Positions 2,732 through 56,680 of a DNA stretch of 64,000 nucleotides are shown piece after piece. Below the pieces are notes generated by a model, which did no database searches, was not told the origin of the DNA, and saw only the letters and a program-made list of their open reading frames with translations. The DNA lies in the NCBI GenBank assembly GCA_050084515.1, contig CM114271.1, positions 10,726,001 through 10,790,000 of the forward strand, written 5' to 3'. Both the position numbers and the translations under genes were made by a program. This stretch comes from Blasia pusilla (Eukaryota). How positions within the stretch are numbered: the stretch's first letter is position 1; each line of letters opens with the position of its first letter.

Positions 2732-3234
2732 AAATATTTTGCCACAAATTACCTTTACTTTAACTTCACCTCTCATATTTCAGCCTCCCTATTTTGCCCT
2801 ACAATACGGAAATTCCACCTATAAATTCGTTGATAATGGGGGTTGGTCTCTCTAGCAGGAGAGAGATGATAAACTCTCATTCACCTTCAAGACTGATTGT
2901 TGACGTTAACATTTTCATCTTCACATCTTGGTTTGAGAAAATGTGGTTAGTTTTTCCCCCAAAGTGGTGCACTTCTTACTCTCTTTTAAAAATTTCTTGC
3001 ATTTGAAGTAGGGGAGAAACCTCAAAAATTGAAGAAAGTTCTGAAGAGAGGTTAAGGGTTTGGCTCTATTTTTTGAAGAGAGACTCTCCTCTCTTCCTCT
3101 GTTCCTCTCTCATGCCAGAATACCAGCCCCCTCGGTTTTCGACGGGTTGCAAGTAGGAGAAAAGTTTTCCCATGAATGTCTATGTGCAACCCATCAAAAT
3201 TGGACGGGTTGTAAGTAGGAGACAAGTTTGTCCT

Positions 3235-6481: not shown

Positions 6482-6619
6482 ATGATCCTCTTGGGGATCG
6501 AACTCTACAATTGACTGTAAATAAGAAACACTTAGACATTACATTTACCTTAGGGATTAAACACGTTGAATTGTTATGACAGTGTCCACATTGCCTCAAT
6601 TAGGCCATTCACGAGGTTA

Positions 6620-6970
6620 GTTCAACCCATCGAATTCCAACAGGTTGCAAGCCATCGGATTCCGTCAAGTCGCAACCTATCGGATTCCGACAAGTTGGAA
6701 ACCGTTAGATTTTGACACGTTGCAAACCGTCAAAATCTGTCTTGTTACAAACCTTTGAATTTCGATAGATTTCAAATTGTTGGAATCCATCTAATTGCAA
6801 ACCTTCGGATCCCAATAGGGTGCAAACCGTTGGAATCTGTCTGGTTGCAAACCGTCGGATTTTGACTGGTTGCAAACCATCGAAATCCGTGTGATTGCAA
6901 ACCGTTGGCATCCGTCTGGTTGCAACACGTCGGATTCCATTTGGTTGCAATCCATCTGAATCCAATTGGT
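6620..6970. repeat. 25-bp-period tandem array of abutting palindromes (~14 degenerate units)
   Basis: Units like GCAACCTATCGGATTCCGACAAGTT recur every 25 bp; neighbouring units share the TGCA. Confidence 0.85.
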
Positions 6971-7889
6971 CCCAGAAAAAATTGAAATGGTGGATGAGAA
7001 AGTGAGAAAGTTTGTCATAGTGGAATCCCTCGCAGTCCGACGGGTTGCATGGGGACAGCCAAAAAGGGGATTGGGCTGGCTAGGTGTTCTTGTCACAACC
7101 CCTCAACATGTTCCATGCTATTCCCCGGGATGACAGACCTAAATCGTGGGACAATCCACTATCACTAAAGCAACCCGTATGGTTGCAAAAGGTGGCAAAC
7201 TTACCACCGAGAGGACGGACTAGTTTGATCCCGACCCCCATGCAAACCATTGGAGTCTGACGGCTTGCATGGGTTTCTTGGGAAGTACGAGCGTCGCCGT
7301 GCAGCCCGTCAGAATCCAAAAATTTGCACACGGTCATTGGCGAGCTTCGTCCTTGCAACCCGTCGGACTCTGACGGATTGCATGGCGACGCTTTAGCATT
7401 ATAATGCGTGAACCCAATGCAAACCATCGGAGTCCAATGGGTTACATGGGGTTCTTGGGTCGTACCAGCTAGATGTGCAACCCGTCTCATTCCTACAAGT
7501 TGCACGCGGCCGTTTATCAACTTCGTCCTTGCAATCCCTCGGACTTCGACGGGTTGCACATTAACGTTGTACCATAACAATGCGTGGAACCCGTGTAACC
7601 CATTGGAGTTCGACAAGTTGCATGGTTCCCACGTGGATAGCACCGTAACAGCCACACATCACTATCGGTCGAACGATTCACTAGAACCAACAATCAGCTC
7701 AACGGCTAAAAAAGTATATAAGCCCAAACTTTGCTCATTTCTCTTTTCCATTCCGCGATTTCATTTCGAGCTCTTTGTCCTCCAATGACTCCTATCGGCA
7801 ATTAAGCACCCCGAGTCTTCTTGTCACAACGGTTACCATCAAAATCCCTTTGCTAGAAGGTGACAACGCTCCAAGTGAGGACGCTTCGA

Positions 7890-9845: not shown

Positions 9846-10631
9846 CTATACACATCTCGGACACATCCATCGTCCCGTGGGAACCACATCAAGAGGGGGG
9901 GTCAGACAAGACATATGCCACCCGTGAGAACAACCATCACATACCAACATGGTGGCTGCATTCCTCGCAGATCCGCACAACATACACCTCAAGCCCGTAG
10001 GTCCCACTGCCAAGCTCGGATCCACCGTCTTGTCTACGTTTGCAAGATGACATGGCGCATATTTGCGCACATGATCCTTCCAAACCATTGCATCCCGTCC
10101 CTCCAACATAAGTTCTCCGATCGGTAATACCTTGCGCACACGTAGGATCGTGCGTCCTATAGTGACATCTAGCATCGTGGGTAGCGCCTGCTGTAAATAG
10201 AGGTAATCTCCAGGATGAAACCTCCTAATCCCTGGACAATAACCTCCTCCACGAATGGTCCCGTACCTCGATGTATCTCTATGCTGAGCAATAGCTAAGT
10301 TCTCAAAGGCCATAGGCATAACTCGACGAAAAACCTCAGCCCTGTGAGAACACGCTTGTACCCACACATCTCAATCATCAAGATCTAACATCTCTGCCAT
10401 GTCACGTCAAATTGCTGTAGGTAAATCTGGCTCTCTCCCAAAGAGCAAAAAGTATGGTTAAAATGACGCCAAGGATGCCTGTCGACTAAAGCGATAACCC
10501 ATAGCCAACCATGGCAACTATAGGTCCCACTCCCTCAACTGTCCTCACTGCAAGCCATACCTGCGCAATTCTCTCTTTACTGTCTGTACCACTCTCTCCA
10601 TCAACCCATCCGCCTCAGGATGATCTCTGGA
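9846..10631 (-). pseudogene. Integrase C-terminal part + PHD finger
   Basis: HPEADGLMERVVQTVK integrase core. C4HC3 pattern CMLC..LVCDGC..GWHMSCLTPPL..VPTGRWMCPRC. Confidence 0.9.
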
Positions 10632-11604
10632 GGGGGCTGGTATTCTGGCAGGAGAGAGTAAGAGAGGAGAGTCTCTCTTAAAAAAAAAGGGCCAAATCCG
10701 CCTCCTCTCTTCAAAACTTTTTGACATATTTGAAAATTTTGTTTGCTTTCAAATTCAGGAAATCTTTAGAAGAGAGTATTTAGTGGTCCACATTTGGCCC
10801 TAAAAAAACCTCCTCTTTCCTGGGGGCGAGAAAAAAGGAGACATCATAAGACCACTACAAACATTTTTCCATCACTCTCCACGTGAGCCTAAGTTTCTTA
10901 ACATTCCCTGTCTCGGTCAACAAAAAACAGTGCCCTTGGTATTTTTGTTGCAGGACCACCCGGATGCCAACCTCTCTTTTTGCACGGATTGTTTCCTGCA
11001 TCATGGCCTCCCCTAAATTGCCCCATAACCAACTTTCTGTTGGTTATGAATGGTGTCTGCTCAAGACCAACTTTGTGAAATGTGAACACATAAGATCCTA
11101 AGGTGAGAAACCGAGAAGCTGCACCCCTCCCAACCCGTAAGAAAGCTCATCATAAGAAAGGAAAGATTTTTAGAAGTGATTTTCTTCCACCCTGCACCCA
11201 CGACGATCTAACAGGTTGGGAATCCGAAATGGAAATCCGACAAGTAGTAGGAATCCTGCACATCTTAGACAAGAAAAGAAGCCTACAACTGGTTTGACAA
11301 ATGAAGGGGAACAAGCCAAAAGTCAAGAAGCCCGCCACAATGCGTCAAAAGTTGGTCTCACCGGGATAGAGTCCGATCACTCAAGCAGTCAACTTGTCGG
11401 AATCCGACAGGTTTCCTGGAAATGGTAAAAAAGTTGCAGTGGGCAAAAAGCAAAAAGTTGGAACCCGTCGGAATCATACGGGTTGCAGAATTGTAATTCT
11501 GAGTAGCTAAACGAACACAATCCACAAGTCCAAAAAAATATTCCAGCAAACTTTTACAAACACCATTATGGGTTGAAAAAATCTCGTCCTTTATTACCTC
11601 TATC

Positions 11605-14600
11605 TAATTGTACAAACTATCTAAGCTGTACCCATCTGAGCATGGATCCACAGGATCCTGGATCTTGAACACCTCGAAATTGTGCTCGGGCCGAACGGCA
11701 AAGACACGCGTAGGGAGTGGTCCATCTCAGAATCAAGACGTTGGAAACAATGTCAGCAACTAAAGAAGTCGGCTTGAGAACATTTTCAATTACTGACATT
11801 GGATCAACCTATCGGAGTCCGACGGGTTGTCTTGTCCCGGACCAACCCGTCGGAAGGCGACGGGTTGGTCAAGGACTAAAACAACCCGTCGGGCTCCGTT
11901 GTTTTTGTCCATGAGCAACCCGTCGGAAGGCGACGGGTTGCTGGCCTAGAGCAGCCCATGCTCGCCTGAGAGCAACCCGTTGCTATCAGGCAGGTTGCAT
12001 CCAAAAACCAAAAGCAACTCGGAAAAACCAAAAGCAACTGCAACCCGTCAGGTTCTGACGGGTTGGAGGTACACCGCGGTTTTCCCTGTGTATGTGGGAA
12101 AGATGCAACCCGTCAGAAACTGACGGGTTGCTCTTTGCCGAGCATGGCCGCTCTAAGCCGTAAAACCCGCCGCTTCCGACGGGTTGCTCACACAAAACCC
12201 CAGATTGACACTCATTATACTCACTCAACAGAGATGAACACTCATTATACACATCATTAAAATATAATTGAAATTATAGTACAGGAATTGAGCCTTACCC
12301 GAATCTGACTCGTCGCGGATCGGAGTGGGTACTCGTTTTTGATGATCCACGATTGCGTCGTCCTCCACTTTAGCGACCTCTTGACGCACTGGAGGTTGAA
12401 GCACTCTTGACGCACTTTAGCGTCCTCGCTCCCTCCAGTCAACACCAAGAAGCAGCCCCTGTCACTCAGATAGGCGTCTGCAAAGGAGAACAAAAGCGCA
12501 ATCTGGTCATAAGAGAGCGGCACATTCCACTCAGGCACCTCGTCCGATGGATTCTCGCCCCAAAGTCGCAACCCCGAGGGCAGATCGGCGATCAAGAGAT
12601 CCACCGCAACCTCTTCGACCACTCCATTCACCGTCAAGGCAGCGTGCCCGTTTTGTTGGAGCTTCCGTCCTAGCGTTCTCAATTTTTTGATGGCTGGTGT
12701 CGACGCTTGAGAACTGAAGCTCTTTAGCTCATCCAGTAAAGGAGTGAACTGAAGGAGGACGCTTGTCCGGGTCGTTGTTTGTCTGTGTCTTCCCAAGGAT
12801 GATGGATTGTATTCTCCTTGGGACAACCCGGGCACCTCTCGCTTCCGCTTCTCCCTAGTCTGCGAACGGCTTGTCGGGGTCTCTATGACCTCAGACTTTG
12901 GTGGGGTTTTTTTCGCCGAGGACCTGGTCCGACCCTCTCTCCCCGCTCGCCCGGACGATTCCGCCTTTGGCCTTGAATCTTCAGCCTCTCTTTGGGAAGA
13001 CTCGGCCTCTGAATTTTTCCCTCCCCTCGCCTTGCCTTTGAGACCCGCTGTGGATTTGTCTTTGGTTGTGCGGACCTTGGAAGCCAACTCAGCTGTCTCG
13101 TGGGCCTGCTCTTCTGCATCTCCTCCGTAGAAGTCTTCAGGCTGGACGAAATTGGGGATGTCGTCTTGTCCTGAGGCCACTGCATCATGAAGCACTCGTA
13201 AATTCTTATCGATGATGTCTTCAGGGTCGTTGAAGTCGAGCCAAATGGGGCAATTCTCCACCTCCCAATCGGACATGTGTTGCCCCATCTCCATGTCGTA
13301 CATGGAGAATGTCTCTGCATCCGGCGGCAAAGCCCACAATTTCAAGGCTACCGGTAATTTTCCCCACGTACTTGCATTCTTACATTGGACGAGGTACCTG
13401 AAGACCATCCGTTGGGCAGCTTTTAGTCAAACACAATCGGCCGTCTGCTCCTGTAGATCTCGCTTCTTCTTCGCTTGATCCCGTTCGTTCCCCTCTACTT
13501 CTTCGTCAAGCTCTGCCTGAGGGAGGACGCAAACCTTGAACATGGTCTTGAATCCTGGGTTTTTGGTTGGCTTGTCCTGGATGTGGTCGAGCCAAACCTC
13601 GAAATCTCCAGAACTTTCAAGGTTTGCTTCATCCGGGATGGGCTCTTATCTTCTGAGCTCCGTTTGTAGACCATCCAGCACGGAGTTCCCGATAACCCGC
13701 AACGCGTCCCAGAACGACCATACGCGTATCCAGTGCGAGATCATTGGATCGGACACACCCGGAGGATGGTGTGTCGCCCTCTTCTGGGCCTCTGAGCCCT
13801 TGAGACTGATTTTCATCAGTCGGATCCTCCTAAACTCGCTTATGCCGGACAACGCAAACCGATGCACGCAATCCAGGGACACTTTCTCCCCAATCCGACC
13901 ATGCAGATCTTCATCCCTTTTCGGGCGCTTGATAATCGCCTTGGCTCCTTTGTAGAACTCCGGACCAAGTTCGGGGTTGAGAATCTTGATGTATCGCGCA
14001 TCTTGCTCGCCGTGTATTTCGTTGTCGCAGATATCGCAGCCTTGATGAATTTCGCGGCGCCAGACGCAGATACCTTCTCCCTCCGCTCCAGCTCCATCTG
14101 CAGCGCTTTTCTTGCGGCATGTATCTTCGACCAAAGCAAAGGATGGTTCTGGCCGCATCTTGGGAAATAAACTTATTTGCCCAAGTTTTTTTTTTAACTG
14201 AGCACCCTTTGCAAGCATCTGATTGACAAGGGCATTGCCCAAGAACCCCTATACTCTCCCGGTGCGTCGTAAGCACCTTCCTCATCCGATCGCAGTCATG
14301 GATCCAGTGGTGGGTGACATTTCCCTCCGATACAATCCTGCTTTCGGCCAAAAACAGTTTCGAGGCAAGCAACCCGTCGGACTCCGACGGGTTGCTTTGG
14401 GGAAAAAACCTTCTAAACTGCAGCTCGTTCGAACAACTCGCCGGAGTCCGACGAAGTTGCATTCTTCAAAAAACATCCTCACAAGGCGGCGAGTCGAACA
14501 ACCCGTCAGACTCCGACTGTTTGCTTTGGGCCAAAAACTAATTAAATCTGTGGTCAATCAAACAACTCGCCGGAGTCCGACAAGTTGCATTCTTAAAAAA

Positions 14601-15916
14601 ACATCCGAAAAAATGTGCAGTCGAGCAACCCGTCGGAGTCCGACGAGTTGCTTTCGGCAAAAACAAACCTAACCCATTCATCAATCGAGCAACTCGTCGG
14701 AGTCCGACGAGTTGCGTAAGTGTTACAGATTCTCACGTGTTCATGGCATGCATTGTCATCTCCACCATCGCCATGTGATGAGGGAATGGGTGAAGGACCA
14801 CTGCCTTCACGCATAAATGTGCCTCCAATGAGTTGGGCCGCTCCTCCGCAAACTTGGTCCATGCCATGAACCTGTGATTTCCATCCCAGATGAAGAAATG
14901 CAGATTCCTCATCCAGCTGAATTCCGTGCCCTCAACTTGCCTTCTGAAATCCTAGTCTCGCATCCTCCAGAATGTGTCGAGCTTTTCCAAGTCCTCCTCC
15001 ATAACCAGAGCTTGGGTTCCATGCTTGTCGTAAGGCTGAACATAGAAGGGAGGAAAGCGTCGGCGACGAGGATGTTTGTCGCCGATTGTTTAAGCTTTCG
15101 CGATGTCCCTCGTCGGATCGAATTTCGCGGACGTATTCCATTGTCCACAATCGCGAGTGGAATCCTCGGGCTAGGGTGGCGTCCATGAGTGCCATATGCT
15201 TTTCCACCTGTCAGAACCAGGACAAGATGAATAAGCTACACTGAATTTCCAATGAATTGCAATTCACATAATTCAAAAAACCCATATCCTCTCTTACCCG
15301 CTCGAAAATGGGGTCGGTTTCTTGACCAGCTAACTTGTCTGAGACAGAAGCTGGAAAATCGACTAGGAACTCGTCGATCCGATAGAGGTCGATGTCCTCC
15401 GCCGGGCTTGGAGTCGAATGACCGCTCTCCGCTTCTTCGCCATGTCCACCATCTCCACGCTGGCGGTCCTCATGACCTCGTCGTCATCGATTTCAACTTC
15501 TGGCGTTTCCACTATGTTGATTGTGTCCCCAGACTTCGTGGGGGACATTTCCCGCATCTCAACACTTTCAGTTGGACGGGCAGGGCTATCGCTTTTTCCC
15601 TCCTCGCTTTAGCCAATTCTGCCCTCCTCACCAACGCGTCCAGACGCTTCTTTTCTCTCTTTTCGTCGGCGATCCTTTTCTTCAAGGCCTGCGACGTCTC
15701 AGCCTCTGCGTTCTGTTTATCTTTATCTAGCGCCTCTTGAATACGTCTCGCAAGAAGCACTTGGTTGTGCATCTCTGCTTCCCTTTCCCGCTCCTCGATT
15801 TCCCGCTGCCTAATTTCATTCGCCGAACGAGGCCTAGGAGATGCTGACGTAGGAGTCCTAATGGACTTCGGAGTGAAGCTCCCAGACTTGTTGGCTTGTG
15901 ATTTTTTCCTCGTCAT
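11605..15916 (-). pseudogene. Spliced gene: coiled-coil + ParB/Srx-like + beta-class amino-methyltransferase-like domain (3' part deleted in this copy)
   Basis: ATG (MTRKKSQ) at 15916. FFIWDGNHRFMAW at ~14871-14888. VDLLIADLPSG at ~12575-12600. GT donors at ~15297, ~14737 and ~12297. Frameshifted; lacks the segment matching 54258-55545. Confidence 0.7.
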
Positions 15917-16299
15917 TTTTTCCGGAAATGCCTCCACCTATGTCCACGACAAATCCCTTGATCAGTCGCCTTGCTGATGTCGAGATGGGGAGCTCGAATC
16001 ACCTTGATGGGTAGCTCGAATGGTCCCGCGATCGCTCAGTCGAACCGTCTCGTTGTCGTTCGGTCGAACCGTCTGGCTCTCGTTCCCTCCTATCGATTCG
16101 CAATGTGTCGCCGTGTGAAACGCCCCTTCGTATCTGATCAGCTCCTGCGCGGGAGAGTGAGGAATGAAGATGGCAAAATGAGAAACCGGAAATGAGCGAT
16201 TTTTGCCCTATTTATACTTTTCTAGCCGTTGGGCTGACCGTTGGGTCCCGTCGTCCTTTCGACGGTGACCTGCCGGAGGTTACGGAAGTCCGGACGTGA

Positions 16300-16810
16300 A
16301 AAATGGCAACCCGTCGGAGTCCGACAGGTTGCGCGCCTCTGCCATCCTGGGTACGACGCCACGTGCGCGAGCAACCCGTCGGAGACCGACATGTTGCGCG
16401 CCTCTGCCGTGTTTGGGACGAGAACGGGACGTATCTTGGGCAATCCGTCGGAGACCGTTGGGTTGCACGCTTCCCTCATCAAGGTTCAAGAACGCGGGCT
16501 TCCCGTGCAAGTCGTCAGAGTCCGGCTGGCTGCACACAAGGCGAGGCCCTTGCGCAACCCGTTGGAGGGCGACAGGTTGCACGCCTCGTTGTCTTTGGGC
16601 AAATAGGTGAGGCACCCGCGGAAGTCGTCGGGAACAGACGGTCTGCACGCCTTCGGCATCTTCGGGCAAGAAGGAGCGGTATCCGAGCAACTCGTCGGAG
16701 AGGGACGGGTTGCTCGCTTTGACAATGTTTGGCAGAAGCGTGCAACCTGTCTGAAGCCGTCGGTTAGCTTCGGGTAATTTTTGAGTTACCAGGACTCCGA
16801 CGGGTTCCAA
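16300..16810. repeat. Intergenic palindrome cluster between the two divergent genes
   Basis: About 9 palindrome copies with variable spacers, flanked by outward-facing TATA-like boxes (GTATAAATA on minus at ~16209-16217; CTATAAAT at ~16963). Confidence 0.8.
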
Positions 16811-17027
16811 GTGTGATGCACAACCCTCTGCTTCCCAAATCCAGTAACATATTGAAATAGAATTGAATGTGTTACAGAATTGGATCCATTGTGTCAGACA
16901 ATATCACCCACCGAATTCATCTTGTCCGTAAAAATCTGTCAGGAGTTTTTGTTTCCTATTCACTATAAATTAAAAATTCTCACTCTCATTCTCATTCTCA
17001 GTCTCCTCCTGTTGGAATCTTATTGGA

Positions 17028-20000
17028 ATGGATAATTATGTTAAGCTCACTTGTGGCAATCATCAGCCGGCCCTTCCTCAATCAGAAATCATTCGACCCC
17101 AAGCTCGTGAGTCTTTCATAGCAATGGATGAAAATTTTCTGTCTGTTCGATTTCTTCTCCAAATTGGAACCATCTTTGTATCCAAAGATTTTAGGGTGGA
17201 CGGTACGGAAGACATAATAGGTGAGACGGTCCAGCCAAAGTGACCTCAGCATCGTAAAGTATGGAATCTCCTACCTCTAGCAAATGGTCAATACAGAGTT
17301 TACGGCCCGCTCGATTGCCTCTGTTTCCCAAGTAGACGGTCTAGAATTTCCTAGTGCTCAGAGCTCACGTTTGCAACTCCAAGCTCTGCAGATCCGGCGT
17401 CGACTCAACCAGACGCCTCGTAATAATGTTGTTCATCCCGAAGAGATTCCGGATGTTATCAACCTCGTGGATCTGGCTTGACACCAATCGGTCCCTCGTC
17501 CGCCTACGTTCCTCTTGCGAGTATCTAGAAATAGTTTGTTGTCTCGGCCTTGAAAATGTTCAAGCACATTCTTGTTGACGAGTGGTGCCCACGCACGATG
17601 GTAATTGCATTTTTGAGTTGCCTCCACTTGCGGCTCTGCTCAAAAGAAGGATGGAGGACGCTGAAGGGTATGGACAGAAAAAGTCCGATTGTCATCGATG
17701 GTGCAGCTTCAACGGACCAAAGTGCTTCAATTCCAGATGGTCCTTGATTGTCTCCCGCCGCCAATGCGTGGGAGCCTTGGAGTGTAGAAGTCCAGCATGC
17801 CCGTATCTAGAGCGCAACGGGCGAGTCAATACGTCGCAATTCCCTCCCAAGAATGCAGAAACTCCATACGAGGTCGGTGCCACCATACCGCCGGGAGGCC
17901 ATCGATGTCCTCATTGTCAGACATCGCCCTTCTACGTTGGAGCGTGTCCTGCATACATATTTTTCATTGTCCACGACTTGGGCTCCACGTCAGAGTATAC
18001 AAGGCTGGCAGTCCATGTTGACTCCCACACTCATCATGTGACCGATGCAATTCAAAGACACATCAAGGAGGATGTGGCGAAGAAAGTAGTTGAGGTCTAT
18101 AGAAACTCTCCGGGTTCAAAGCCCGGAGTGATCAAGCTCACATCGGCATCACAAATTTGTAAACAATTGCTTGGAATCCCTGGACAGGGTGAGATCACGG
18201 CGGTTGAGGAGAATCAACTCTGGGAAAATCTCGCATTTCTCGCTGATCCTGAATGCTTCCGGAAATTTGCTGCATCAAATACGAGTTCTGGATGGAAAGA
18301 CGGCCGAAATGGATGCCATCGCCACAATCAAGGCCAACTCCAGATTTCCATTCATTCAGAGATGGCAGTTCATGGGCCAAGGAGGCGAGGGATCCAGGGC
18401 CTATGTCTTCAAAATGTCAACCACAGGTCCGTCGAATGGCCTCAATCTTATAGATTGAATGAGGGAAGGGAAAGATCTTTACGGGAGCTGGGTAAGCTTT
18501 GATATTTGCTATAGAGTGCTGAACGGATGGTTGACGATGGGTGCTCACCTTTATGACCATGTGGAGAAGGGACTCAAAACTAGATTTGTCTCTGAAGTAA
18601 AGGCAGAAGACGTTGGCAGTTTGAAGATGTGCTGGTTACTCTTATTGGAGGTGGTGAAGGAAAAAAAAAGGCCACCTCCGGAAATTTATGGGTTCATGGC
18701 GGACAATGCACAACCAAGGTGGATTGCTATCCGGGAAGTGTTCTGGGGTGGAGAGGTTCAACCGGAGAGGGAAAGGTCGGATGCTTTCCATTGGCAACAG
18801 TATGTGACCCGGTACACCAAATCTTGCATCAAGGAGAATAAGAGGACAGAGCATGTGACTCTACTCCAACGCTGCAAGGACAGAAAAACCTTGAAGCAGG
18901 CCATGGAATGCCAGGAAGAACTTCATGGGTGGTGGAGGAAGCATGCGATTGAGGGGAAGTACAAAGAGTTGTGCTCTTGGTTGAGTTGGTGGACTGTACG
19001 TATGAGACAATGGGGAAACTTCATGCGGCAGGTGAGTTCACTATTTTTTCTTGTCAAGCTCACGCTGAGAATTGTTTGTAAAGTTGTAGCTCAGGGTGAG
19101 AAGCGTGGGAATTATATGGATTTCAAACCCAAGAAACCAAGCAAGCTGTCGGATGCGACGGGTTGCCCGAGTGTGCAACCCGACGGAAACCGATGGGTTG
19201 CCCGATTGTGCAACCCAAGTGTGCAACCCGTCGGGACCAGATGGGTCAAAGAGTCGTTCATGGGATGCCTCGGCCTTGCAACCCGTCTGGTTCCGACGGG
19301 TTGCAGTAGGTGGGCTTAAGGTTACAACACGTCGGGACCCGACGGGTCGCAGAGTCGTTCATGGGATGCCTCGGGCTTACAACCCATCTGGTTCCGATAG
19401 GTCGCTTATTTCTTTGACTCCTGAGTTATTTTCGTTCCCTTCTAACATTGCCGTCGTTGCAGGGATTGAACGTTCATGAAAATGCCCTCTGCCCCAACAC
19501 AAGTGGAGCGAAAGTGTTCATTCCTCTTGAGGTCGTCACAAGCATGCCAACGAATTTCACTTGTGGAGGCATGCCAACAAGACCAGGCAAGAGCAATGCT
19601 ACAGTCTGCAGCATCCCATATCTTCCTCACAAAAGGCATAACAAAAGGAAAGGGGCCGTCGATCTACGAGCTCTATGTCAGGGCGGCTGTGAGATCTGGT
19701 GATGAAAAAATGTAGGTGGAAGCCTTCAACCGGTGCGTATCTGGAACTCCACTCGAGCAAGACGTACACATTGGTGGGGATATTTGTGGGCGGGTTTCAA
19801 GACGTCCCACACAGATGGTGGTAGAGCGATCGAGCGAGACTCGTGGAGACCAGATAAGTATCTTGACTTCAGGCAGGTGAAGAGGCAGCATCGAGGAACG
19901 AATCCGATGATTGATTTGGATGAGGAAATTACACCGCCCTGGTATTCGGGGACCCCGAACCCGTCCCAAATCCGTGATGGAGTTACTTCTGCAAAATCAG

Positions 20001-20485
20001 TGAATGTTTTATTTCAAAAGCCCTCCGTTGCTGGAAGTTTGCAACATCCTGTCACTCGGGTGGTTCAACAATATGGGATTCCGGTAATGGAGGTGGATTG
20101 CAACCTAAAACGGTGGCATATATCTCGAGCAACCAGACGTGGACCCACCTACTGTGGTTGGATCTGATGGCATTAGGAGAGCATGCGGCACTTTCCTAAA
20201 TAAGAACTGCATAAGGATCGACGACCCTTGCATGGGTTTTGGGGACTCAAAACCTTTGATCGTTTCACGAGGACCGGGGATCAATTGAAGTACTTCTTCT
20301 GCCCAAATGAATCTTGCGTTTTCCGGAAGTCTTATCCGGTTGCCATTGGAGCTCTCGGGAATACCCCCACAATTTGGCCCATCGCCGCAGGTACGAACTG
20401 CACTCAAGACGAAGTGGACAATCTTACAAGTGCCGGTTTCATACTTGTAGACGGGGGAAGTTCGGAGCATGTTCGCATTACATAG
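17028..20485 (+). pseudogene. MULE-like DDE transposase with N-terminal GCM/WRKY-like Zn domain and Cys-rich C-terminus; one intron (~19033-19462)
   Basis: C..C..CPHC..CP..HxxxHTH N-domain. Candidate catalytic motifs VSFD, GFMADN, DAFHWQQ (CxxH-like) and frameshifted NTSGA(E)SVHS. GTGAGT donor and TTGCAG acceptor. Several stops and frameshifts. Confidence 0.7.
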
Positions 20486-20566
20486 ACCTTCGCATTTCGT
20501 ATTCAACCCAAGCATTGGTGGTGCACACGCACTAGAGTGAAGTGCAGCTCCTCGATTCAAAAAAAG

Positions 20567-20760
<194 letters not shown>

Positions 20761-21921
20761 CTCTCAGTTCTTGATTGGACTTGGAGTTCCGAGATCATTG
20801 TGATTTTGCTCGCCTTTTGTGACGATGAGGACGAAGCATCTAGCCATTACTTGGCTTCCTACGCAAAATTCGTATTCCTCAGAGCAAGAGCATATGCTGA
20901 TATTGCTAAGCTGGTAGCACTAGAATTGTTCAAGGTACCTTCTTCACTTGCTTCTCTCTCTACACCCATCCCGCTCTCAAGCACCGTCCAACCAGGGCAT
21001 GGGGTCTATGGTCGCAAGGCTACGACAGGCACTATTTGATAGTATAGTCTTTCTCTCTCTCCTTTTGGTAGTACCAGAATTGTTCAACACATTCAGTAGC
21101 CTTGATTCATTGCCCAAAGCTACTGCAGTGGTAAATAATGTCTATTGGGGATCCCAATCAGGTAAAGTAGATGGTCTGGTGAATAGTTTCTTGGATGACA
21201 CGTGGAAGCTTCGCACAAACACGTTGTTTAGTCAACACTCACACTATATGAGAGTGTCTCCCTCCTCTCATATAGTATCTTCTTCACTTGCTTGTCTTTC
21301 TACACCCATTCGAGCAACAAGTGCTTTCTTGCTTTCCATACATTATAACTCTTTTTTATATATATACATATCGCGCCGACCATGGAATTGGTTGAATTTG
21401 GCTCAACTAGTGTTGTGTATCAAGTACAAGAGCAAAGTAAGACTCAAATATCACGGAGGGGACCGAGACATTCACTCCTTGACCTACCAAGTACTTACTT
21501 GTACGTCACTCTTCTCCTTGTTCTCCTTGCGCCTTCACATAGGTTAGTCACTTGCTTTAGTTGCTGGAAAAATACATTAGACCAGGGCCATAATAAAGTG
21601 TATATATCAAAGGATTGAATCATTATCTAAAGTTGGGTGTGTTATATTTGTCATTCAGGAATGTCATTTGAAGCGTTGGACCACATCGGTGAGGATTGTT
21701 AGTGATGATTGATGATTGAGATCTCCATCGAGATAAGAACCAGGTTAGGTATATGTGCCTTATCATACTTGTCTTGACTTCACGTGGGTATGCATTCAGA
21801 TGATAGCTTTTTCCATTAGATCTTTGTGGAATTTGTTATTGAGGCAAGATGTCATGGTTTTGGATGTGTTTGGAATGTTTCAGTTCACAGTTTGCGGGAA
21901 TTCACTTCCAATCCCCTTAGA

Positions 21922-25611: not shown

Positions 25612-25723
25612 ATTAATTCATAGTTGTTTTTTTGGTACTCATCATTGTGTTTTTTTTTTGGTATGATTCAAATAATTGACTTTTTTTACGAGGATGTAAG
25701 TGAATTCTGGTGTTGTTGGGCAT

Positions 25724-48728: not shown

Positions 48729-51700
48729 GGAGTCCTGGTAACTCAAAAATTACCCGAAGCTAAACGAAGCCTGCAACCCGTCGAATTCGGATGGGTTGCA
48801 CGCTTCTGCCAAACATTGTCGAAGCGAGCAACCCGTCGCTCTCCGACGAGTTGCTCGGATACCGCTCCTTCTTGCCCGAAGATGCCGGAGGCGTGCAAAC
48901 CGTCTGTTCCCGACGAGTTCCGCAGGCGCCTCACCTATTTGCCCAAAGACAGCGAGGCGTGTAACCCGTCGCCCTCCAACGGGTTGCGCAAGGGCCTCGC
49001 CTTGTGGTGCTTACATGAAGTGTGCAGCCAGCCAGACTCCGACGACTTGCACGGGAAGCCCGCGTTCTTAACCCTTGACGAGGGAAGCGTACAACCCAAC
49101 GGTCTCCCACGGATTGCCTGGGTACGTCCCATTCCCGTCCCAAACAAGGCGGAGGCACGCAACATGTCGGTCTCCGACGGGTTGCGCGGGTACCTCGCGT
49201 TCTTTTCCGAAGACGACGGAGGCGCTCAACCCGTCGGTCTCCGACGGGTTGCTCGCGCACGTGGCGATGTACCCAGGATGGCGGAGGCGCTCAACTTGTC
49301 GGACTCCGACGGGTTGCCATTTTTCACCTCCGGACTTCCGTAACCTCCGGCACGTCGCCGTCGAAAGGACGACGGGACCCAACGGTCAGCCCAACGGCTA
49401 GAAAAGTATAAATAGGGCAGAAATCGCTCATTTTTGGTTTCTCATTTCACGATCTTCATTCCTCACTCTCCCATGCAGCAGCTGATCAGATACAAAGGGG
49501 CGTTTCACACAGCGACACATCGCGAGTCGATAGGAGGGAACGAGAGCGAGACGGTTCGACCGGACGACAGCGAGACGGTTCGACTGAACGATCGTGAGAC
49601 GATTCGAGCTACCCATCAAGGCGATTCGAGCTACCCATCTCGACATTAGCAAGGCGACTGATCAAGGGATTCGTCGTGGACATAGGTGGAGGCATTTCTG
49701 GAAAAAATGACGAGGAAAAAATCACAAGCCAGCAAGTCTAGGAGCTTCACTCCGAAGTCCATTAGGACTCACAAGATCTCCTGGGCCTCGTTCGGAATGA
49801 AATTAGGCAAAGCAGGAAATTGAGGAGTGGGAAAGGGAAGTGGAGATGCACAACCAAGTGTGCTTTAGTAGACGTGTTCAAGAGGCGCTTGATAAACGAG
49901 TAACGCAGAGGCCGAGACGTCGCAGGCCTTGAAGAAAAGGATCGCCGACGAAAAGAGAGAAAAGAAGCGTTTGGACGCGTCGGTGAGGAGAGCAGAATTG
50001 GCTAAAGCGAGGAGGGGAAAAGCGATAGCCATTGACGATAGCCCTGCCTGTCCAACCGAAAGTGTTGAGATGCGGGAAATGTCCCCCATGAAGTCCAGGG
50101 ACACAATCAACATAGTGGAAACGCCAGAAGTTCAAATCGATGACGACGAGGTCATGAGGACCGCCAGTGTGGAGATGGTGGACATGGCCAAAGAAGCCGG
50201 AGAGCGGTCATTCTCGACTCCAAGCTCGGCGGAGGACATCGACCTCTATCGGATCGACGAGTTCCCAATCGATTTGCCAGCTTCTGTCTCAGACAAGTTG
50301 GCTGGTCAAGAAACCGACCCCATTTTCGAGCGGGTAAGAGAGGATCTGGGTGTTTTGAATTATGTGAATTGCAATTCATTGGGAATTCACTGTAACTTAT
50401 TGATCTTGTCCTGGTTCTGACAGGTGGTAAAGCAGATGGTACTCATGGAGGGCCACAACGCCCCGAGGATTCCACTCTGCCAATTGCGGACAATGGAATA
50501 CGTCCGCGAAACTCAGTCCGACGAGGACATCGCGAAGCTTAAACAATCGGCGGCGACATCATCCTACGTCGACAACTTTCCTCCCTTCAATTAACTGCCT
50601 TACGACGAGCATGGAACCCAAGCTCTGGTTACGGAGGAGGACTTGGAAAAGGTCGACACATTCTGGAGGATGCGAGACCAGGATTTCAGAAGGCAAGTTG
50701 AGGGCACGAAATTCAGCTGGATGAGGAATCTGCATTTCTTCATCTGGGATGGAAATCACAGGTTCATGGCGTGGACCAAGTTTGCAGAGGAGCGGCCCAA
50801 CTCATTGGAGGCACATTTTTGCGTGAAGGCGTGGTCCTTCACCCATTCCCTCATCACATGGCGACGGTGGAGATGGCAATGCATGCCATGAACACGTGAG
50901 TATCTTTAACACTTACGCAACTTTCGTCGGGGACGGTTGTTGGGATGTTTTTAACACTTACGCAACTCGCCGGACTCCGCGAGTTGCTCGATTGATGAAT
51001 GGGTTAGGTTTTTTTGCGAAAGCAACTCGTCGGACTCCGACGGGTTGCTCGACTCGACGCTTTTTCGGATGTTTTTTTAAGAATGCAACTCGTCGGACTC
51101 CGACGAGTTGTTCGATTGACCACAGATTTAATTAGTTTTTGGCCCAAAGCAAACCGTCGGAGTCCGACGGGTTGCTCGACTCGCCGCCTTGTCAGGATGT
51201 TTTTTGAAGAATGCAACTCGTTGGACTCCGACGAGTTGTTCGACTGACCGCAGGTTTAGAATGTTTTTTGCCCAAAGCAACCCGTCAGAGTCCGACGGGT
51301 TGCATTCGGAAGTTGGTTCCCCAAATTTCGCGTCAAATTGCAAGTTTCCATTCAATTGTGCAACCTGTCGGACTCCGACGGGTTGCTATGTTCACGTTAG
51401 TATGTTCAGTTGCACAACCCGTCAGGGTCCGACGGGTTGAAACCAGGCATTAGCAAATCTGAATGCAATCCGTCGGACTCCGACGGGTTGCATCATTTAG
51501 CTCGTTCCTAGAATCCGACCTTGAGCTGTGACGACCCGTCGAAGTCCGACGGGTTGCAAGAACCCATGTAATTTCCTGACGGGTTGAGTTTGGATGTGCA
51601 GGATTGTATCGGAGGGGAATGTCACCCACCACTGGATCCAGGACTGCGATCGGGTGAGGAAGGTGCTTACGACGCACCCAGGAGAGTACAGGGGTTCTTG

Positions 51701-54700
51701 GGCGATGCCCTTGTCAATCCGATGCTTTCAAAGGGTGCTCAGATTAAAAAGAAAACTTGGGCAAATAAGTTTATTTCCCAAGATGCAGCCGTAACCATCC
51801 TTTGCTAGTCGAAGATACAGCCGCGAAGAAGAGCGCCTGACCGAGCCGGAGCGAGGGAGAAGGTATCTGCGTCGGCGTCGCGGAAATTCATCAAGCCGCA
51901 GATTCGCAACAACGAAATACACGGCGAGCAAGATGCGATACATCAAGCAATCTCAACCCCGAACTTGGTCCGAGTTCTACAAGGAGTCAAGGCGATTATC
52001 AGCGCGCCAAATGAAAAGGGATGAAGATCCGCATGGTCGGATTGGGGAGAAAGTGTCCCTGGATCGCGTGCATCGGTTTGCGTTGTCCGGAATAAGCGAG
52101 TTTAGGAGGATCCGACTGATGAAAATCAGTCTCGAGGGCACAGAGGCCCAGAAGAGGGCGGCACATCATCCTCCGAGTGTGTCCGATCCAGTGATCTCCT
52201 AGTGGCTACGCGAATGGTTGTTCTGGGATGCGTTGCGGGTTATCGGGAAGTCTGTGTTGGACGGTCTGCAAGCGGAGCTCAGAAGATTAGAGCCCATCCC
52301 GGATGAAGCAAACCTTGAAAGTTCTGGAGATTTTGAGGTTTGGCTCGACGACATCCGGGACAAGCCAACCAAAAACCCAAGATTCAAGACAATGTTCAAG
52401 GTTTGCGTCCTCCCTCAAGCAGAGCTTGACGAAGAAGAAGAGGGGAACAAACGGGATCAAGCGAAGAAGAAGCGAGATCTACAAGAGCAGACGGCCGATT
52501 CTGTTTGACTAAAAGTTGCCCAACGGATGGTCTTCAGGTACCTCGTCCAGTGTAAGAATGCAGGTACGTGGGGAAAATTACCGCCAGCCTTGAAATTGTG
52601 GGCTTCGCCGCCGGATGCAGAGACATTCTCCATGTACGACATGGAGATGGGGCAGCACATGTCCGATTGGGAGGTGGAGAATTGCCCCATTTGGCTCGAC
52701 TTCAACGACCCTGAAGACATCACCGATAAGGATTTACGAGTGCTTCATGATGCAGTGGCCTCAAGACAAGACAACATCCCCAATTTTGTGCAGCCTGAAG
52801 ACTTCTTCGGAGGAGATGCAAAAGAGCAGGCCCACGAGACAGCTGAGTTGGCTTCCAAGGTCCGGACAGCCAAAGACAAATCCACAGCGGGTCTCAAAGG
52901 CAAGGCGAGGGGAGGGAAAAATTCAGAGGCCGAGTCTTCCCAAAGAGAGGTGAAGATTCAAGGCCGAGGCGGAATCGTCCCGGCGAAAGGGAGAGAGGGT
53001 CGGACCAGGTCCTCGGCGAAAAAACCCCACCAGAGTCTGAGGTCATAGAGACCCCGACAAGCCGTCCGCAGACTCAGGAGAAGCGGAAGCAAGAGGTGCC
53101 AGGGTTGTCCCAAGGAGAATACAGTCCATCATCTTTGGGAAGACACAGACAAACAACGACTCGACAAGCGTCCTCCTTCAATTCACTCCTTTACTGGATG
53201 AGCTGAAGAGCTTCAGTTCTCAAGCGTCGACACCAGCCATCGATAAATTGACAACGTTGGGACGGAAGCTCCAACGAAACGGGCACGCTGCCTGGACGGT
53301 GAATGGAGTGGTCGAAGAGGTTGCGGTGGATCTCTTGATCGCTGATCTGCCCTCGGGGTTGCGACTTTGGGGCGAGAATCCGTCGGACGAGGTACTTGAG
53401 TGGAATGTGCCGCTCTCTTATGACCAGATTGCGCTATTGTTCTCCTTTGCGACGCCTCTCCCGAGTGACGATGGTGGGGGCTCGCTTGGTGTTGACGGAG
53501 GGAGCGAGGACGAGCTCTTCAACCTCCAGTGCGTCAAGAGGTCGCTAAAGTGGAGGACGGCGCAATCATGGATCATAAAAAACGAGTACCCACTCCGATC
53601 CGCGACGAGTTAGATTCGGGTAAGGCTCAATTCCTGTACTATAATCTCAATTATATTTTAATGATGTGTATAATGAGTGTTCATCTCCGTTGAGTGAGTA
53701 TAATGAGTGTCAATCTCCATTTTTTTTTGTCCGTGAGCAACCCATCGGAAGGCGACGGGTTGCTGGCTTAGAGCAGCCCATGCTCGGCTGAGAGCAACCC
53801 GTCGGTTTCCGACGGGTTGCATCTTTCCCACATACACAAGGAAAACCGTGGTGTACCTGCAACCCGACGGGTTGCAGTTGCTTTTGGTTTTTCCCTGTGT
53901 TTTCGGAAAGCTGCAACCCGTCTGATAGTGACGGGTTGCTCTCAGGCGAGCATGGGCTGCTCTAGGCCAGCAACCCGTTGCCTTCCAACGGGTTGCTCAC
54001 GGACAAAATCAATAGAGCCCGACGTGTTGGTGCGGGACAAAACAACCCGTTGGACTTCGACAGGTTGATCCAAAGTTGAAAATGTTCTCAAGCCGACTTC
54101 TTTAGTTGCTGACATTGTTTCCAACGTGCTTATTTACATATGGACCACTCCTACGTGTACTGCTTCGTTCAGCCCGAGCACAATTTCCAGGTGTTCAAGA
54201 TCCAGGATCCTGTGGATCCATGCTCAGATGGGTACAGCTTAGATAGTTTGTACAATTCCCCCTCGGGAATTTACATGCAAGACAGTACCCTGCTTCTGGG
54301 AGGAAGGGAAAAGTTGCCTGCCCTGATGCAAACGCTCATCGAGCTCTGCTCAAGGCCGGGTGACTTGGTGTTCGACTTAGTGGGACTTTCAGGGGCAAGT
54401 ATCAAAGGCGCCTGGCTGAGTGGCAGGAACTGTTTGACCTTTGCCTCGAGGGAAGGGAACTGCCTCGGAAGGGAAGGCATTTCTCGCCTCAAGGGAAGGT
54501 AGAACTGTTCGCCTCAAGGAAGGCAGAATCGCTTGACCTTTGCAAGGAGGCAAAGGCAGAATACGAAAGGCTCGTTGGGGTATACAACTCTCCACCGAAG
54601 CCAAGAGCTCCGGTTCCAGACCCACCCTTGGTAGTGACTCCATCGTCACTTCCAACGATTCCAAAAATCGGGAGGGCAAGGCCGAAAGTAATTCTGCAAG

Positions 54701-56532
54701 AGCTCTCGGACGATGACGAGTGAGTTCAAAGAACTCAACGACCCAGCTTGACTGCAGCGTTTGGAGTAGGGAGTTTTTTGATGATGAGGCAAAAGATTTC
54801 ATAGAATAGATCAAATGTACAATTCCGAGCTTTTTTCAGATGATATAAAGCAGAAGATTTTTTCGAACGATGGTGGTGCTTGTAAAAGTTTGTTGAACAT
54901 TTTTTGTCTTTTCGAATGTGATCGTCTTTGTACTCCGCGGACTTCTATTTTGCAACCCGTCGGATTTCTCCTGCTTGCAACTTTTCACTTTTTGACCACT
55001 GCAACCCTTCGGATTTCTCCTGCTTGCAACTTTTCACTTTTTGACCACTGCACTTTTTTACCACTTCCAGAAACTGGCCGGATTCGACAGTTGCCTCGAT
55101 CGGACTCTTTTCCTGTTTGTCCAACTTAAGAGCCGGTCGGCGGGCTTTTTCCTTGGCACTTTCCCTCAACTCGTAAAGGCGGCGAGGCTTCTTTTCTTCT
55201 CTCGGGACGTGTTGGATTCCTACTACCTGTGCGATTGCCATAATGGTATTAACGGGGACGGAGCACATATTGATACTGGATGGGTGTCACATTGCAAAGC
55301 GTACAAGGTATACTGCCGAGGAAGGCGGTGGGACTCAAATCAGGTTACATGGGACCGTTATGGTGTACCTAGGGGGGGGCCAAGGCTCTCGAATTCACCA
55401 ACATTTTCGATCCCCGTCTACAATCGGCCAGAGGAGCCACTTGTATCCGAGGACATTCCTTTGGTACTCTCACTGAGGAGAGTTAGATGACGAGGCTGAA
55501 GAAATCATAGACTAGGTCAAATGTACATTTCCGAGGTTCCTTCGGAGGTAATAAAGGACGAGAGTTTTTCAACCCATAATGGTGTTTGTAAAAGTTTGCT
55601 GGAATATTTTTTTGGACTTGTGGATTGTGTTCTTTTAGCTACTGAGAATTACAATTCTGCAACCCGTATGATTCCGACGGGTTGCAACTTTTTGCATTTT
55701 GCCCACTACAACTTTTTAACCATTTCCAGGCAAGCTGTCGATTCCGACAGGTTGACTGCTTGAGTGATCGGACTCTTTCCCTGTGAGACCAACTTCTAAT
55801 GCATTGTGGCGGGCTTCTTAACTTTTGGCTCGTTCCCCTACATTTGTCAAACCAGTTGTAGGCTTCTTTTCTTGTCTAAGATGTGCAGGATTCCTACTAC
55901 TTGTCGGATTGCCATTTCGGATTCCCAACCTGTTAGATCGTCGTGGGTGCGTGGTGGAAGAAAATCACTTCTAAAAATCTTTCCTTTCTTATGGTGAGCT
56001 TTCTTACGGGTTGGGAGGGGTGCAGCTTCTCAGTTTCTCAGCCTTAGGATCTGATGTGTTCACATTTCACAAAGTTGGTCTTGAGCAGACACCATTCATA
56101 ACCAACAGAAAGTTGGTTATGGGGCAATTTAGGGGAGGCCATGATGCAGGCAACAATCCCTGCAAAAAGAGAGGTTGGCATCCGGGTGGTCCTGCAACAA
56201 AAATACCAAGGGCACTGCTTTTTGTTGACCGAGACAGGGAATGTTAAGAAACTTAGGCTCACATGGAGAGTGATGGAAAAATGTTTGTAGTGGTTTTATG
56301 ATGTCTCCTTTTTTCTTGCCCCCAGGAAAGAGGAGGTTTTTAGGGCCAAATGTGGACCACTAAATACTCTCTTCTAAAGATTTCCTGAATTTGAAAGCAA
56401 ACAAAATTTTCAAATATGTCAAAAAGTTTTGAAGAGAGGAGGCGGATTTGGCCCTTTTTTTTTAAGAGACACTCTCCTCTCTTCCTCTCTTCCTCTCCTC
56501 TCTTACTCTCTCCTGCCAGAATACCAGCCCCC
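48729..56532 (+). mobile_element. Palindrome-rich MULE-like transposon, copy B (transposase side missing)
   Basis: Inverted near-identical copy of 10632-16800, plus a ~1.3-kb segment absent from A. Ends CCAGAATACCAGCCCCC at 56532. Left break falls inside a palindrome. Confidence 0.88.
49707..54723 (+). pseudogene. Full-length-looking spliced ParB/Srx-like + beta-class amino-methyltransferase-like gene (frameshifted)
   Basis: WDGNHR at 50745-50762. DLPS at 53344-53355. REKLPALMQTLIELCSRPGDLVFDLVGLSGASIKGAWLSGRN at 54305-54430. Introns at ~50334-50423, ~50896-51601 and from ~53620. Stop at 54721-54723. Confidence 0.75.
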
Positions 56533-56680
56533 GGATCCAAGTGCCAACTAGGGGGGTAGTTGTGTGATCTCCATGTATATGTATGAGTTAATTTCTATAC
56601 ATGTGTGGGAAAGATCGGTGTTGTGTGGTGTGGATGTGATCAGCGATGTATGTTGTGTAGCGATGTGTATACGCACGAAA
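56533..56680 (+). mobile_element. 3' tip of a family-1 gypsy-type element: PPT + single B repeat
   Basis: Reverse-complement match to 9632-9795. Ends ACGCACGAAA with no A segment following. Confidence 0.8.

Follow-up and report, generated by a model that had tools for sequence, protein, structure and literature searches.

A family-specific 27-bp dyad that forms arrays in introns and upstream DNA of a high-copy transposon of Blasia pusilla, a putative binding site for an element-encoded dimeric protein

What kind of sequence is a perfect palindrome that recurs in clusters through introns and intergenic DNA and keeps away from exons? The question is raised by positions 14367-14397 of a 64,000-nt stretch of Blasia pusilla DNA (GenBank assembly GCA_050084515.1, contig CM114271.1, positions 10,726,001 to 10,790,000, forward strand), here called the window, in whose own numbering all coordinates are given. 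A preliminary description of this DNA had offered several answers, among them a parS-like site, the binding site of a dimeric protein and an RNA hairpin signal. The palindrome is a family-specific cis motif of a high-copy DNA transposon, three copies of which (A, B and C) lie in the window. Its arrays are putative clustered binding sites for a dimeric protein encoded by the element itself, a reading to which a probability of roughly 0.55 is given.

The palindrome is present as claimed. It is a perfect 31-mer, AAGCAACCCGTCGGA-C-TCCGACGGGTTGCTT, at 14367..14397 (no strand), read directly in the sequence, and it contains a perfect 27-bp dyad (14369-14395) with two further complementary bases on each side. 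The dyad unit consists of a 13-nt arm, GCAACCCGTCGGA, one free base and the inverted arm. When half-sites on the plus strand are paired with half-sites on the minus strand that follow within 40 nt, 63 of the 69 pairs have an offset of precisely 14, which makes the unit a 27-bp dyad around a single central base. That base is unconstrained (T in 23, C in 18, G in 18 and A in 15) among the 74 recognisable dyads, a set defined by arms with no more than four mismatches each; the best-kept arm positions in the alignment of these dyads are CAA and T9. Two 13-nt arms around a fixed 1-nt centre give a geometry that fits the site of a dimeric protein. To this extent, and in its family-specific and non-coding distribution, the motif agrees with the dimeric-protein site first suggested, binding itself being what we infer.

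Chance does not account for the numbers. With up to three mismatches allowed, the 31-mer has 11 matches, counting both strands and spread over six loci, where 100 shuffles gave 0; the 17-nt core has 62 matches where 0.07 are expected; and the 13-nt half-site, again with up to three mismatches, occurs 175 times in the window, against 10-23 times (about 14) in 20 block shuffles. Every cluster on the earlier list was found again, together with extra scattered copies at 1053-2243, 3138-3212 and 54952-56014. Background aside, all of the dyads fall within the three copies of one transposon. The remaining ~38.8 kb, which include copia, gypsy-like and CACTA sequence, hold eight half-sites, the number that shuffling predicts, so that the motif does avoid these elements and, within the 64-kb window in which the restriction was assessed, belongs to one family. 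Metagenome scans with the exact dyad and with a degenerate form returned 0 stretches each. The family itself is high-copy, since 99,388 contigs of a DNA run with the same species label matched a 10-kb stretch.

Copy A, recognised by self-BLAST, terminus search and read depth, occupies 10632..20185 or further on the plus strand. Its left end lies at 10632, where RNA reads from other copies diverge exactly; on the right, family RNA and high DNA depth reach at least 20185-20500, and no right end was found for this copy. The left end carries a 27-nt terminus, GGGGGCTGGTATTCTGGCAGGAGAGAG (10632..10658, plus strand; three matches in the window against 0 expected), which recurs at 56506-56532 (-) and 3105-3131 (-) with a different flank in each copy. 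In self-comparison 10632-16798 is an inverted copy of 56532-48729, and the latter interval constitutes copy B (48729..56532, minus strand), which is inverted relative to A, is without the transposase part and sits within a copia RNase H frame. A and B are 89% identical for most of their extent, with a rise to 94-96% in the terminal 1 kb (10632-11600 against 55545-56532). Summed DNA and RNA depth, too, is greatest over this terminal kilobase, a stretch that many short derivatives may have in common or that may have undergone homogenisation. Both copies are decaying, as indicated by their defects: a deletion at 11600/11606 has removed the last exon of the accessory gene from A (seen by comparison with B, with loose ends of RNA reads at 11606), and in B a stop at 53611 stands in place of the CAG of A. 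Copy C is older and comes in two parts. The accessory-gene end, C1 (1..3131, plus strand), runs off the window start and finishes at the terminus at 3131; its ORF (open reading frame) at 2103-2651 resembles the last exon of copy B. The transposase part, C2 (3132..7625, minus strand), is 80% identical to A 17593-18621, and is joined or cut by C1 inside a dyad arm.

Where in the element do the dyads lie? In copy A they are confined to four non-coding blocks, of 18, 11, 14 and 10 half-sites, none of which has a strand. The first array (11389..12190, 18 half-sites) falls in the predicted last intron of the accessory gene. The second (14367..14715, 11 half-sites, 64- and 127-bp periods) includes the index palindrome and lies between the exon bearing a DGNHR motif and the next exon, in a predicted intron at ~14249-14738 that has candidate GT/AG borders only, its donor and phase not being settled. 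The third (16306..16808, 14 half-sites) is upstream of both genes, which diverge from it: with start codons as inferred, it is 220-730 bp from the likely transposase start and 390-900 bp from the likely start of the accessory gene. The fourth (19141-19405, 10 half-sites) is within the transposase intron at 19032-19462. Three of these arrays have homologues in copy B, located by tandem-repeat and half-site scans: 48773..49317 corresponds to the third, 50962..51587 to the second (64- and 128-bp periods) and 53737..54068 to the first (none with a strand). The last of them is inside an intron predicted at 53620-54190 from in-frame GT..AG borders (GTAAGG...TTTCCAG, phase 0 at both ends) and ORF continuity. 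Copy C1 has arrays at 613-912, with 45- and 90-bp periods, and then scattered dyads to 2243; C2 has dyads at 3138-3212 and arrays at 6620-7625 (25-, 50- and 176-bp periods). By Tandem Repeats Finder, the arrays at 14370-14715 and 50962-51303 have periods of 64 and 127-128 bp, that at 49037-49317 has one of 67 bp and that at 621-903 has two, of 45 and 90 bp; at 6619-6963 the periods are 25, 50, 75 and 100 bp, and at 7236-7558 the period is 176 bp.

Coding sequence is almost free of the motif. The accessory-gene ORFs of copy A (3.2 kb) have two weak sites, each with three mismatches, and the homology-supported 1.4 kb of its transposase coding sequence has none, so that, these two weak sites apart, the reported absence from predicted exons is confirmed for copy A. 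The statement that the motif sits inside introns of both genes needs more qualification: one of the array-bearing introns (19032-19462) is proven by RNA and two are predicted, and the cluster at 16300-16810 occupies an upstream region and not an intron. Nor are the two genes those of the host, as both belong to the transposon.

The RNA evidence comes from three raw RNA-seq runs with the same species label, aligned at 90% likeness. Most of the reads are 90-95% alike to the window and must therefore come from other copies of the family, so that it is the expression of the family, and not of this particular copy, that they show. Minus-strand RNA prevails over the accessory gene and plus-strand RNA over the transposase gene; the two genes are thus divergently transcribed. 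A 431-nt GT..AG intron of the transposase gene (19032..19462, plus strand), which holds the array at 19141-19405, is supported by a splice joint at 19027>19459 (cut +4) in 1, 5 and 6 reads of the three runs (12 in total). For the introns at ~14249-14738 (A) and 53620-54190 (B) no splice joints were reported, at low depth.

The transposase coding region of copy A (17597..19031, plus strand) was delimited by tblastn of relatives, HMMER and a structure model; by tblastn, the relatives cover A 17597-19064 and C2 3151-3996. Copy A is degenerate here, with a frame switch near 18255-18265. Neither of the ORFs involved, 17579-18502 and 18459-19319 (both plus), matched a Pfam family; 12 long relatives likewise gave 0 families; the Pfam MULE (Mutator-like element) domain was found in 0 of 28 relatives and in none of the window ORFs, and Transposase_mut in 1 of the 28 (E=8e-4). 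A transposase profile against the PDB gave chance-level matches only (E about 0.9), and a word-indexed homologue search with the transposase ORF, at near lengths, gave nothing. An exhaustive HMMER search with ORF 18459-19319 yielded 97 relatives with E<=1e-3, of which three reach E<=1e-30; three of the eight clusters looked up gave an organism, in each case a liverwort (Calypogeia fissa, Riccia sorocarpa). An AlphaFold model built on a 28-sequence alignment (mean predicted local distance difference test, pLDDT, 74) has the RNase-H-like order b1-b2-b3-a1-b4-a2-b5, with an aspartate in b1 (FDICY) and a nearly invariant D82 (ADNA), and in a Foldseek search of the PDB the first five places go to chains of the ISCth4 transposase, of the IS256 family (E 8e-6 to 2e-4). 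Judged by this model, the gene encodes a Mutator/IS256-like DDE transposase with the RNase-H-like core that marks the MULE/IS256 group, in a lineage not captured by Pfam. The N-terminal ORF, which has no Pfam match, led in an Atlas feature search to a FAR1 cluster (0.93), GCM (0.89) and ZSWIM RNaseH-like (0.87). Mutator-like transposases have an N-terminal DNA-binding zinc finger of the WRKY/GCM1/FAR1 type, of which the FAR1 and GCM leads may be a sign. Downstream of the intron, the next exon (19463..19705, plus strand) was placed by reads, sequence and the relative P0064. Copy A is short of one base after 19509; an extra A is present in 3 of 3, 3 of 8 and 0 of 6 RNA reads in the three runs and restores a frame with ..AESVH.., like the ..SESVH.. 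near the end of P0064; this motif probably contains the third catalytic residue.

The accessory gene (gene 2) of copy A extends over 12257..15937 on the minus strand, as indicated by ORFs and by family RNA on that strand. Its exon ORFs are at 15937-15512, 15483-15211, 14951-14733 (with IWDGNHRFMAW), 14248-13646 and 13426-12257 (with DLLIADLPSG). The gene of copy B (49896..54502, plus strand) was traced from its ORFs at 49896-50420, 50595-50891 (DGNHR), 51795-53048 and 53041-53613 (DLLIADLPSG) and a last exon at ~54191-54502. The DGNHR exon resembles Pfam DUF1015, which we take to be a member of the ParB clan, with E=0.0065 for copy B and 0.096 for copy A, neither of which reaches the cut-off, and an Atlas lead points from it to ParB_N (on 11% of one cluster, at 0.92). 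In the last exon of copy B, Pfam N6_N4_Mtase is matched by residues 66-110 (E=0.0043; 17.5 bits, where the cut-off is 26.7), and the exon matches three PHROG DNA-methyltransferase families at 2e-4 to 7e-4 and M.RsrI at E=1.7. By tblastn it reached 236 phage records (best E 1e-2), and 12 of the 12 matches listed lay on annotated DNA methylase genes, in the record or its duplicate. The motif-IV exon had no match in family or structure scans, and NCBIfam gave two non-significant matches only (E 0.035 and 0.69), far below the cut-offs. The parts are arranged as a DGxHR exon, a DPPY-like position and, ~175 residues on, a motif-I-like segment, motif IV having been read by eye; this is the order of beta-class methyltransferases fused to ParB-like domains. 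By eye, the catalytic and S-adenosylmethionine-binding motifs look degenerate (DLPS for DPPY, DLVGLSGAS for DxFxGSG). The ParB-like or GCM-like binder proposed at the outset therefore has partial backing: both domain types are hinted at in genes of the element, by signals that are weak (DUF1015 below cut-off, otherwise Atlas leads only).

How could such arrays work? A dimeric protein encoded by the element would bind the multimerised dyads in the upstream region and in the introns. The first candidate for the binder is the accessory protein; the second is the putative N-terminal zinc-finger region of the transposase. Such a binder could find every copy of its own family and act on it, and the effects could be transcriptional activation, anti-silencing or modification of the transposon's own DNA. 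The arrays themselves would grow and shrink by slippage and unequal exchange.

Several observations weigh against this proposal. Identity between A and B is 92.4% for the dyads, 90.9% for the spacers of the arrays and 92.3% for everything else in the element; the comparison of these two copies gives no sign of selection, which is expected under neutral decay after insertion and fits a functionless repeat equally well. Just 2 of the 74 dyads are perfect, and conservation in their alignment is comparatively low at the inner GGA. GA-N-TC is the site of CcrM/HinfI-type PF01555 methylases, and the GANTC centre of the dyad was considered as such a site; it is intact in just 31 of the 74 and is retained as a weak lead only. 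The first 757 bp inside the shared terminus have no good site, so the dyads are not classical end-proximal transposase sites. As for the accessory protein, its similarity to methyltransferases spans just ~40-60 residues, in the motif-I region, and the ParB-like call on the DGNHR exon, made from sequence, is a weak one: that exon had no PDB match and no tblastn match in phages. Word-indexed homologue searches with the 389-aa accessory exon (near lengths) and the motif-IV exon (longer lengths) returned nothing.

Has the dyad then been maintained at all? The main argument that it was, while the family was active, is the diverged copy C. Here 52 arms fit the same consensus as in A and B, where the periods are 64-67 and 127-128 bp; those of C are 25, 45, 50 and 176 bp, and no BLAST alignment joins the arrays of C to those of A or B at E<=1e-5. 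The idea of maintenance by selection or spreading stands in part, on copy C, which keeps the dyad while spacers and periods differ, and fails in part, on A and B, where the dyads are kept no better than the spacers, one of the outcomes that the preliminary description had named as refuting. The same two sets of data bear on the possibility that the motif is a functionless, hairpin-prone minisatellite, which arose once in the family, is driven by slippage and rides along in non-coding DNA. Its tandem layout with higher-order units (64/128, 45/90 and 25/50 bp), the variation in array length among copies, the equal conservation of dyads and spacers between A and B and the lack of covariation between arms, described below, are all what such a repeat would display. 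However, plain slippage would copy the spacers as faithfully as the motifs, and in copy C the same 27-bp dyad with its 1-nt centre is retained when the spacers and periods have been replaced. Furthermore, each element has at least four separate arrays, which occupy homologous non-coding positions in A and B, and copy C again has arrays upstream of the transposase and in its intron. We consider a minisatellite of this kind unlikely, though not negligibly so.

Base composition is in keeping with the claim that the motif stays CG-rich. Four CpGs lie in the dyad, and CpG transitions make up 85 of the 287 deviations from consensus. The observed/expected ratio of CpG is 0.89 in copy A (10632-20500) and 0.95 in copy B, against 0.50-0.74 in neighbouring elements (0.50 in CACTA, 0.73-0.74 in the retroelement regions); copy C has 0.65, and these ratios are confounded by the age of the elements.

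Alternatively, the motif could act at the RNA level, as intronic or pre-mRNA hairpins that feed small-RNA pathways or regulate splicing. Stable hairpins are formed by all six dyads tested (as DNA, -10.6 to -17.8 kcal/mol; z from -3.6 to -6.0), with the index palindrome, as single-stranded DNA, at -17.8 kcal/mol and z = -6.0; three of the arrays are intronic and hence transcribed, and RNA reads cover the dyads at 14619-14662. However, the pairing of the arms is explained by each arm resembling the consensus. Changes in both arms number 18 over the 74 dyads, against 14.6 +/- 3.3 in shuffles, 89 of 500 of which reach 18; the covariation score of 0.140 compares with 0.135 in shuffles and is attained by 135 of 500 of them; and 240 arm differences are asymmetric against 18 symmetric. 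The search for compensatory changes between arms that the preliminary description had proposed therefore yields no excess, and nothing points to a selected hairpin of RNA or DNA. The upstream array at 16306-16808 has little RNA depth, and Rfam gave 0 matches at gathering score over the whole window, so that neither compensatory pairs nor a known family, the marks of a structured RNA, was found. With no excess covariation and no Rfam family, the RNA hairpin signal suggested earlier is very unlikely.

The ends of the copies raise a further possibility, that the dyads are recognition sites of the transposase of the subterminal type, as in En/Spm (TnpA) or Ac, which assemble the transposition complex and could also act as breakpoints or as alternative ends. 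Copy B stops at 48729, three nucleotides into a dyad arm that is intact in A, and its first array starts 44 bp from this end; C2 is cut in a dyad arm at its junction with C1, and arrays are its outermost recognisable part. In addition, 16 RNA reads join the dyad at 14394 to the dyad at 16307, 1.9 kb apart, as if other copies had dyad-to-dyad deletions. Two copy boundaries (48729 and 3132) and this read joint fall inside dyads, and breakage or recombination at dyads may be the reason. Against recognition sites of this type speak the 757 bp without a good site beside the one well-defined terminus and the position of the arrays deep inside the element, in introns; besides, the breakpoints are two only, and joints between dyads could arise by ordinary repeat recombination or from misplaced reads. 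This explanation is quite unlikely, if less so than one at the RNA level.

No long terminal inverted repeats of the MULE kind were found: downstream in copy A nothing matches the initial 200 bp of the left end in inverted orientation, between the two ends of copy B no more than about 9 of 13 bases agree, and the 27-nt terminus occurs at three like-oriented ends only in the window. Some MULEs, however, lack long terminal inverted repeats. The terminus begins GGGGGCTGG... and not CACTA, as it would in En/Spm elements. Target-site duplications in Mutator-like elements measure 8-11 bp; copy B, the sole copy with two candidate ends, is flanked on both sides by GGA (3 bp) and not by nine identical bases. 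The copia RNase H frame into which it is set (48462-48728) stops at 48728 (..DVD*VG) and resumes near 56904 (56904-57071), the 371 bp between copy B and the resumed frame (56533-56903) being unexplained. A and B were also considered as one element with giant inverted arms; this was rejected, as no 9-bp duplication is common to the outer flanks and the pieces of retroelement beside them represent separate copies.

The parS-like candidate of the preliminary description would be a centromere of bacterial type, working with ParA and ParB in DNA segregation. The likeness is formal only: a multi-copy, tandem inverted-repeat site with a ParB-superfamily motif in the neighbouring gene, no sequence likeness being claimed. 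Bacterial parS is a 16-bp site, against the 27-bp dyad here, and in ParABS systems a ParA ATPase and a ParB with HTH and CTPase parts work on a small number of such sites per replicon. The setting, moreover, is that of a eukaryotic nucleus, with spliced genes and LTR (long terminal repeat) retrotransposons; no ParA-like ORF was present among the ORFs scanned; the sites number dozens per element in a high-copy family of transposons; and the ParB-like exon is joined to a methyltransferase-like part and does not make a partition protein. A ParABS arrangement was thus not found, and the probability of a partition site is negligible.

Several transposon systems offer closer parallels. The motifs of VANC proteins measure ~9 nt, against 27 bp for the dyad described here. 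In the passages of Hosaka et al. (2017, PMC5735166) consulted here, VANC21 localises to the introns, intergenic DNA and terminal non-coding regions of VANDAL21, and its motifs are fast-evolving tandem repeats in the introns of VANB and VANC and upstream of VANA. The likeness to the Blasia element lies in a short family-specific motif, tandemly arranged in accessory-gene introns and upstream of the transposase gene, in a Mutator-type transposase accompanied by one or more accessory genes and in arrays that vary between related copies (as VANDAL is portrayed in those passages of PMC5735166). Motif arrays in introns and intergenic parts, the hallmark of the VANDAL type, were found here as well. 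The differences are that the same passages do not describe VANC motifs as dyads, that the accessory protein here is ParB/methyltransferase-like, with no detected likeness to VANC (the VANC sequence itself was not compared), and that for VANC, according to those passages, binding and hypomethylation have been shown, both being hypothetical for the Blasia arrays. The CpG ratios of 0.89-0.95 in A and B are compatible with a VANC-like hypomethylation, but are confounded by age.

A second parallel is with red-algal Plavaka elements, in which, according to the text available from Petroll et al. (2025, bioRxiv 10.1101/2025.02.11.637652), tandem inverted-repeat arrays adjoin ParB-like PAG3 genes and a PF01555 methylase domain is found in PAG2 of the same elements. 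Shared features are a ParB-like N-terminal part fused to a domain of DNA-modifying type (both putative in the Blasia protein), arrays beside it and beside the transposase gene, and a proposed protein that binds and modifies its own element (bioRxiv 10.1101/2025.02.11.637652). On that text, the ParB-like domain of Plavaka is combined with a 2-oxoglutarate oxygenase, and PF01555 with SET in another gene, whereas ParB-like and PF01555-like parts here appear in one gene; the transposase belongs to the EnSpm/Plavaka superfamily there and has an IS256/Mutator-like fold, as modelled, here; and the hosts are red algae there, the closest named protein relatives here being from liverworts. The arrays are likened by their description in that text.

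The third, Sola1-1_Ec32 of Ectocarpus, has an accessory gene with ParB-like and DNA-methyltransferase domains on the strand opposite the transposase (PMC12477816, in the passage seen). It shares with the Blasia element this domain pair, putative in the latter, in one protein and, as that passage proposes, the binding and epigenetic modification of its own transposon (PMC12477816). It differs in belonging to the Sola1 superfamily, in that the passage seen has no repeat arrays (PMC12477816), and in that its domains were, by the same passage, found with standard tools, whereas those here are weak and their catalytic motifs look degenerate. Tandem inverted-repeat arrays together with a gene on the strand opposite the transposase were both found in the Blasia element.

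En/Spm (CACTA) elements have subterminal 12-bp repeats to which TnpA binds. The dyads resemble them as a short motif present in many direct and inverted copies and bound, in the Blasia case putatively, by a regulator encoded by the element, the inverted pairs suggesting binding by a dimer (for the context of TnpA, see the excerpted part of bioRxiv 10.64898/2026.08.24.746577). The termini here, by contrast, are not CACTA, the transposase is not Transposase_21, and the arrays are internal and intronic and not confined to subterminal regions.

A bolder version of the binding-site reading would combine these elements. A Mutator/IS256-like transposon, with liverwort proteins as its nearest named relatives, may have recruited a prokaryote-type ParB-methyltransferase fusion, which lost catalysis and now serves as a dimeric, sequence-specific self-recognition binder on a parS-like platform of dyads in the introns and promoter, shielding or re-marking its own copies against silencing; the dyads would double as preferred breakpoints or alternative ends and so yield transposase-less copies such as B. 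This scheme is tentative, and as a whole somewhat improbable.

Around the three copies the window is filled with other mobile elements: copia as well as gag- and PHD-bearing retroelements. A CACTA element at ~20918-30722 encodes Transposase_21 (E=1.7e-49) and DUF4218 and has no dyads; it has CACTAGAA at 20918 and ..CTAGTG at 30722 as candidate ends and an ambiguous 3-bp duplication. These CACTA-type ends were considered as the second end of the dyad-bearing element and rejected, since they belong to this neighbour. A perfect (TC)95 microsatellite (20569-20758) lies just past the last read-covered part of copy A. An ORF at 43550-44104 (+) in a retroelement-like repeat matches the C-5 cytosine DNA methylases (PF00145, E=1.5e-10); the methylase-bearing repeat, 43274-44252, recurs at 62206-61230 with 66% identity, and the region may represent a methyltransferase-carrying retrotransposon. 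PHD fingers (E=1.4e-11 and 1.6e-9) are C-terminal in the ORFs at 9846-10370 (-) and 30772-31596 (+), and the PHD-bearing retroelement has three copies, a related one being at 57368-58969.

No description of such arrays in liverworts or other land plants was found in the literature, the supplements of the cited papers not being covered. The kind of system is known or proposed elsewhere; what would be new here is the host lineage, the transposase lineage, the fused accessory architecture and the intronic placement. Should the dyads be inert, they would amount to an ordinary family-specific minisatellite within a transposon. To our knowledge, VANDAL/VANC is the sole case in plants that has been experimentally shown to recognise and act on its own copies. 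If the binding-site reading is true, the Blasia element would be a further case of a transposon that does so, with a candidate site that is unusually well defined (a 27-bp dyad of fixed geometry) and candidate proteins that adjoin it, and it would give the ParB-fusion accessory genes noted in transposons of red and brown algae a specific target in DNA.

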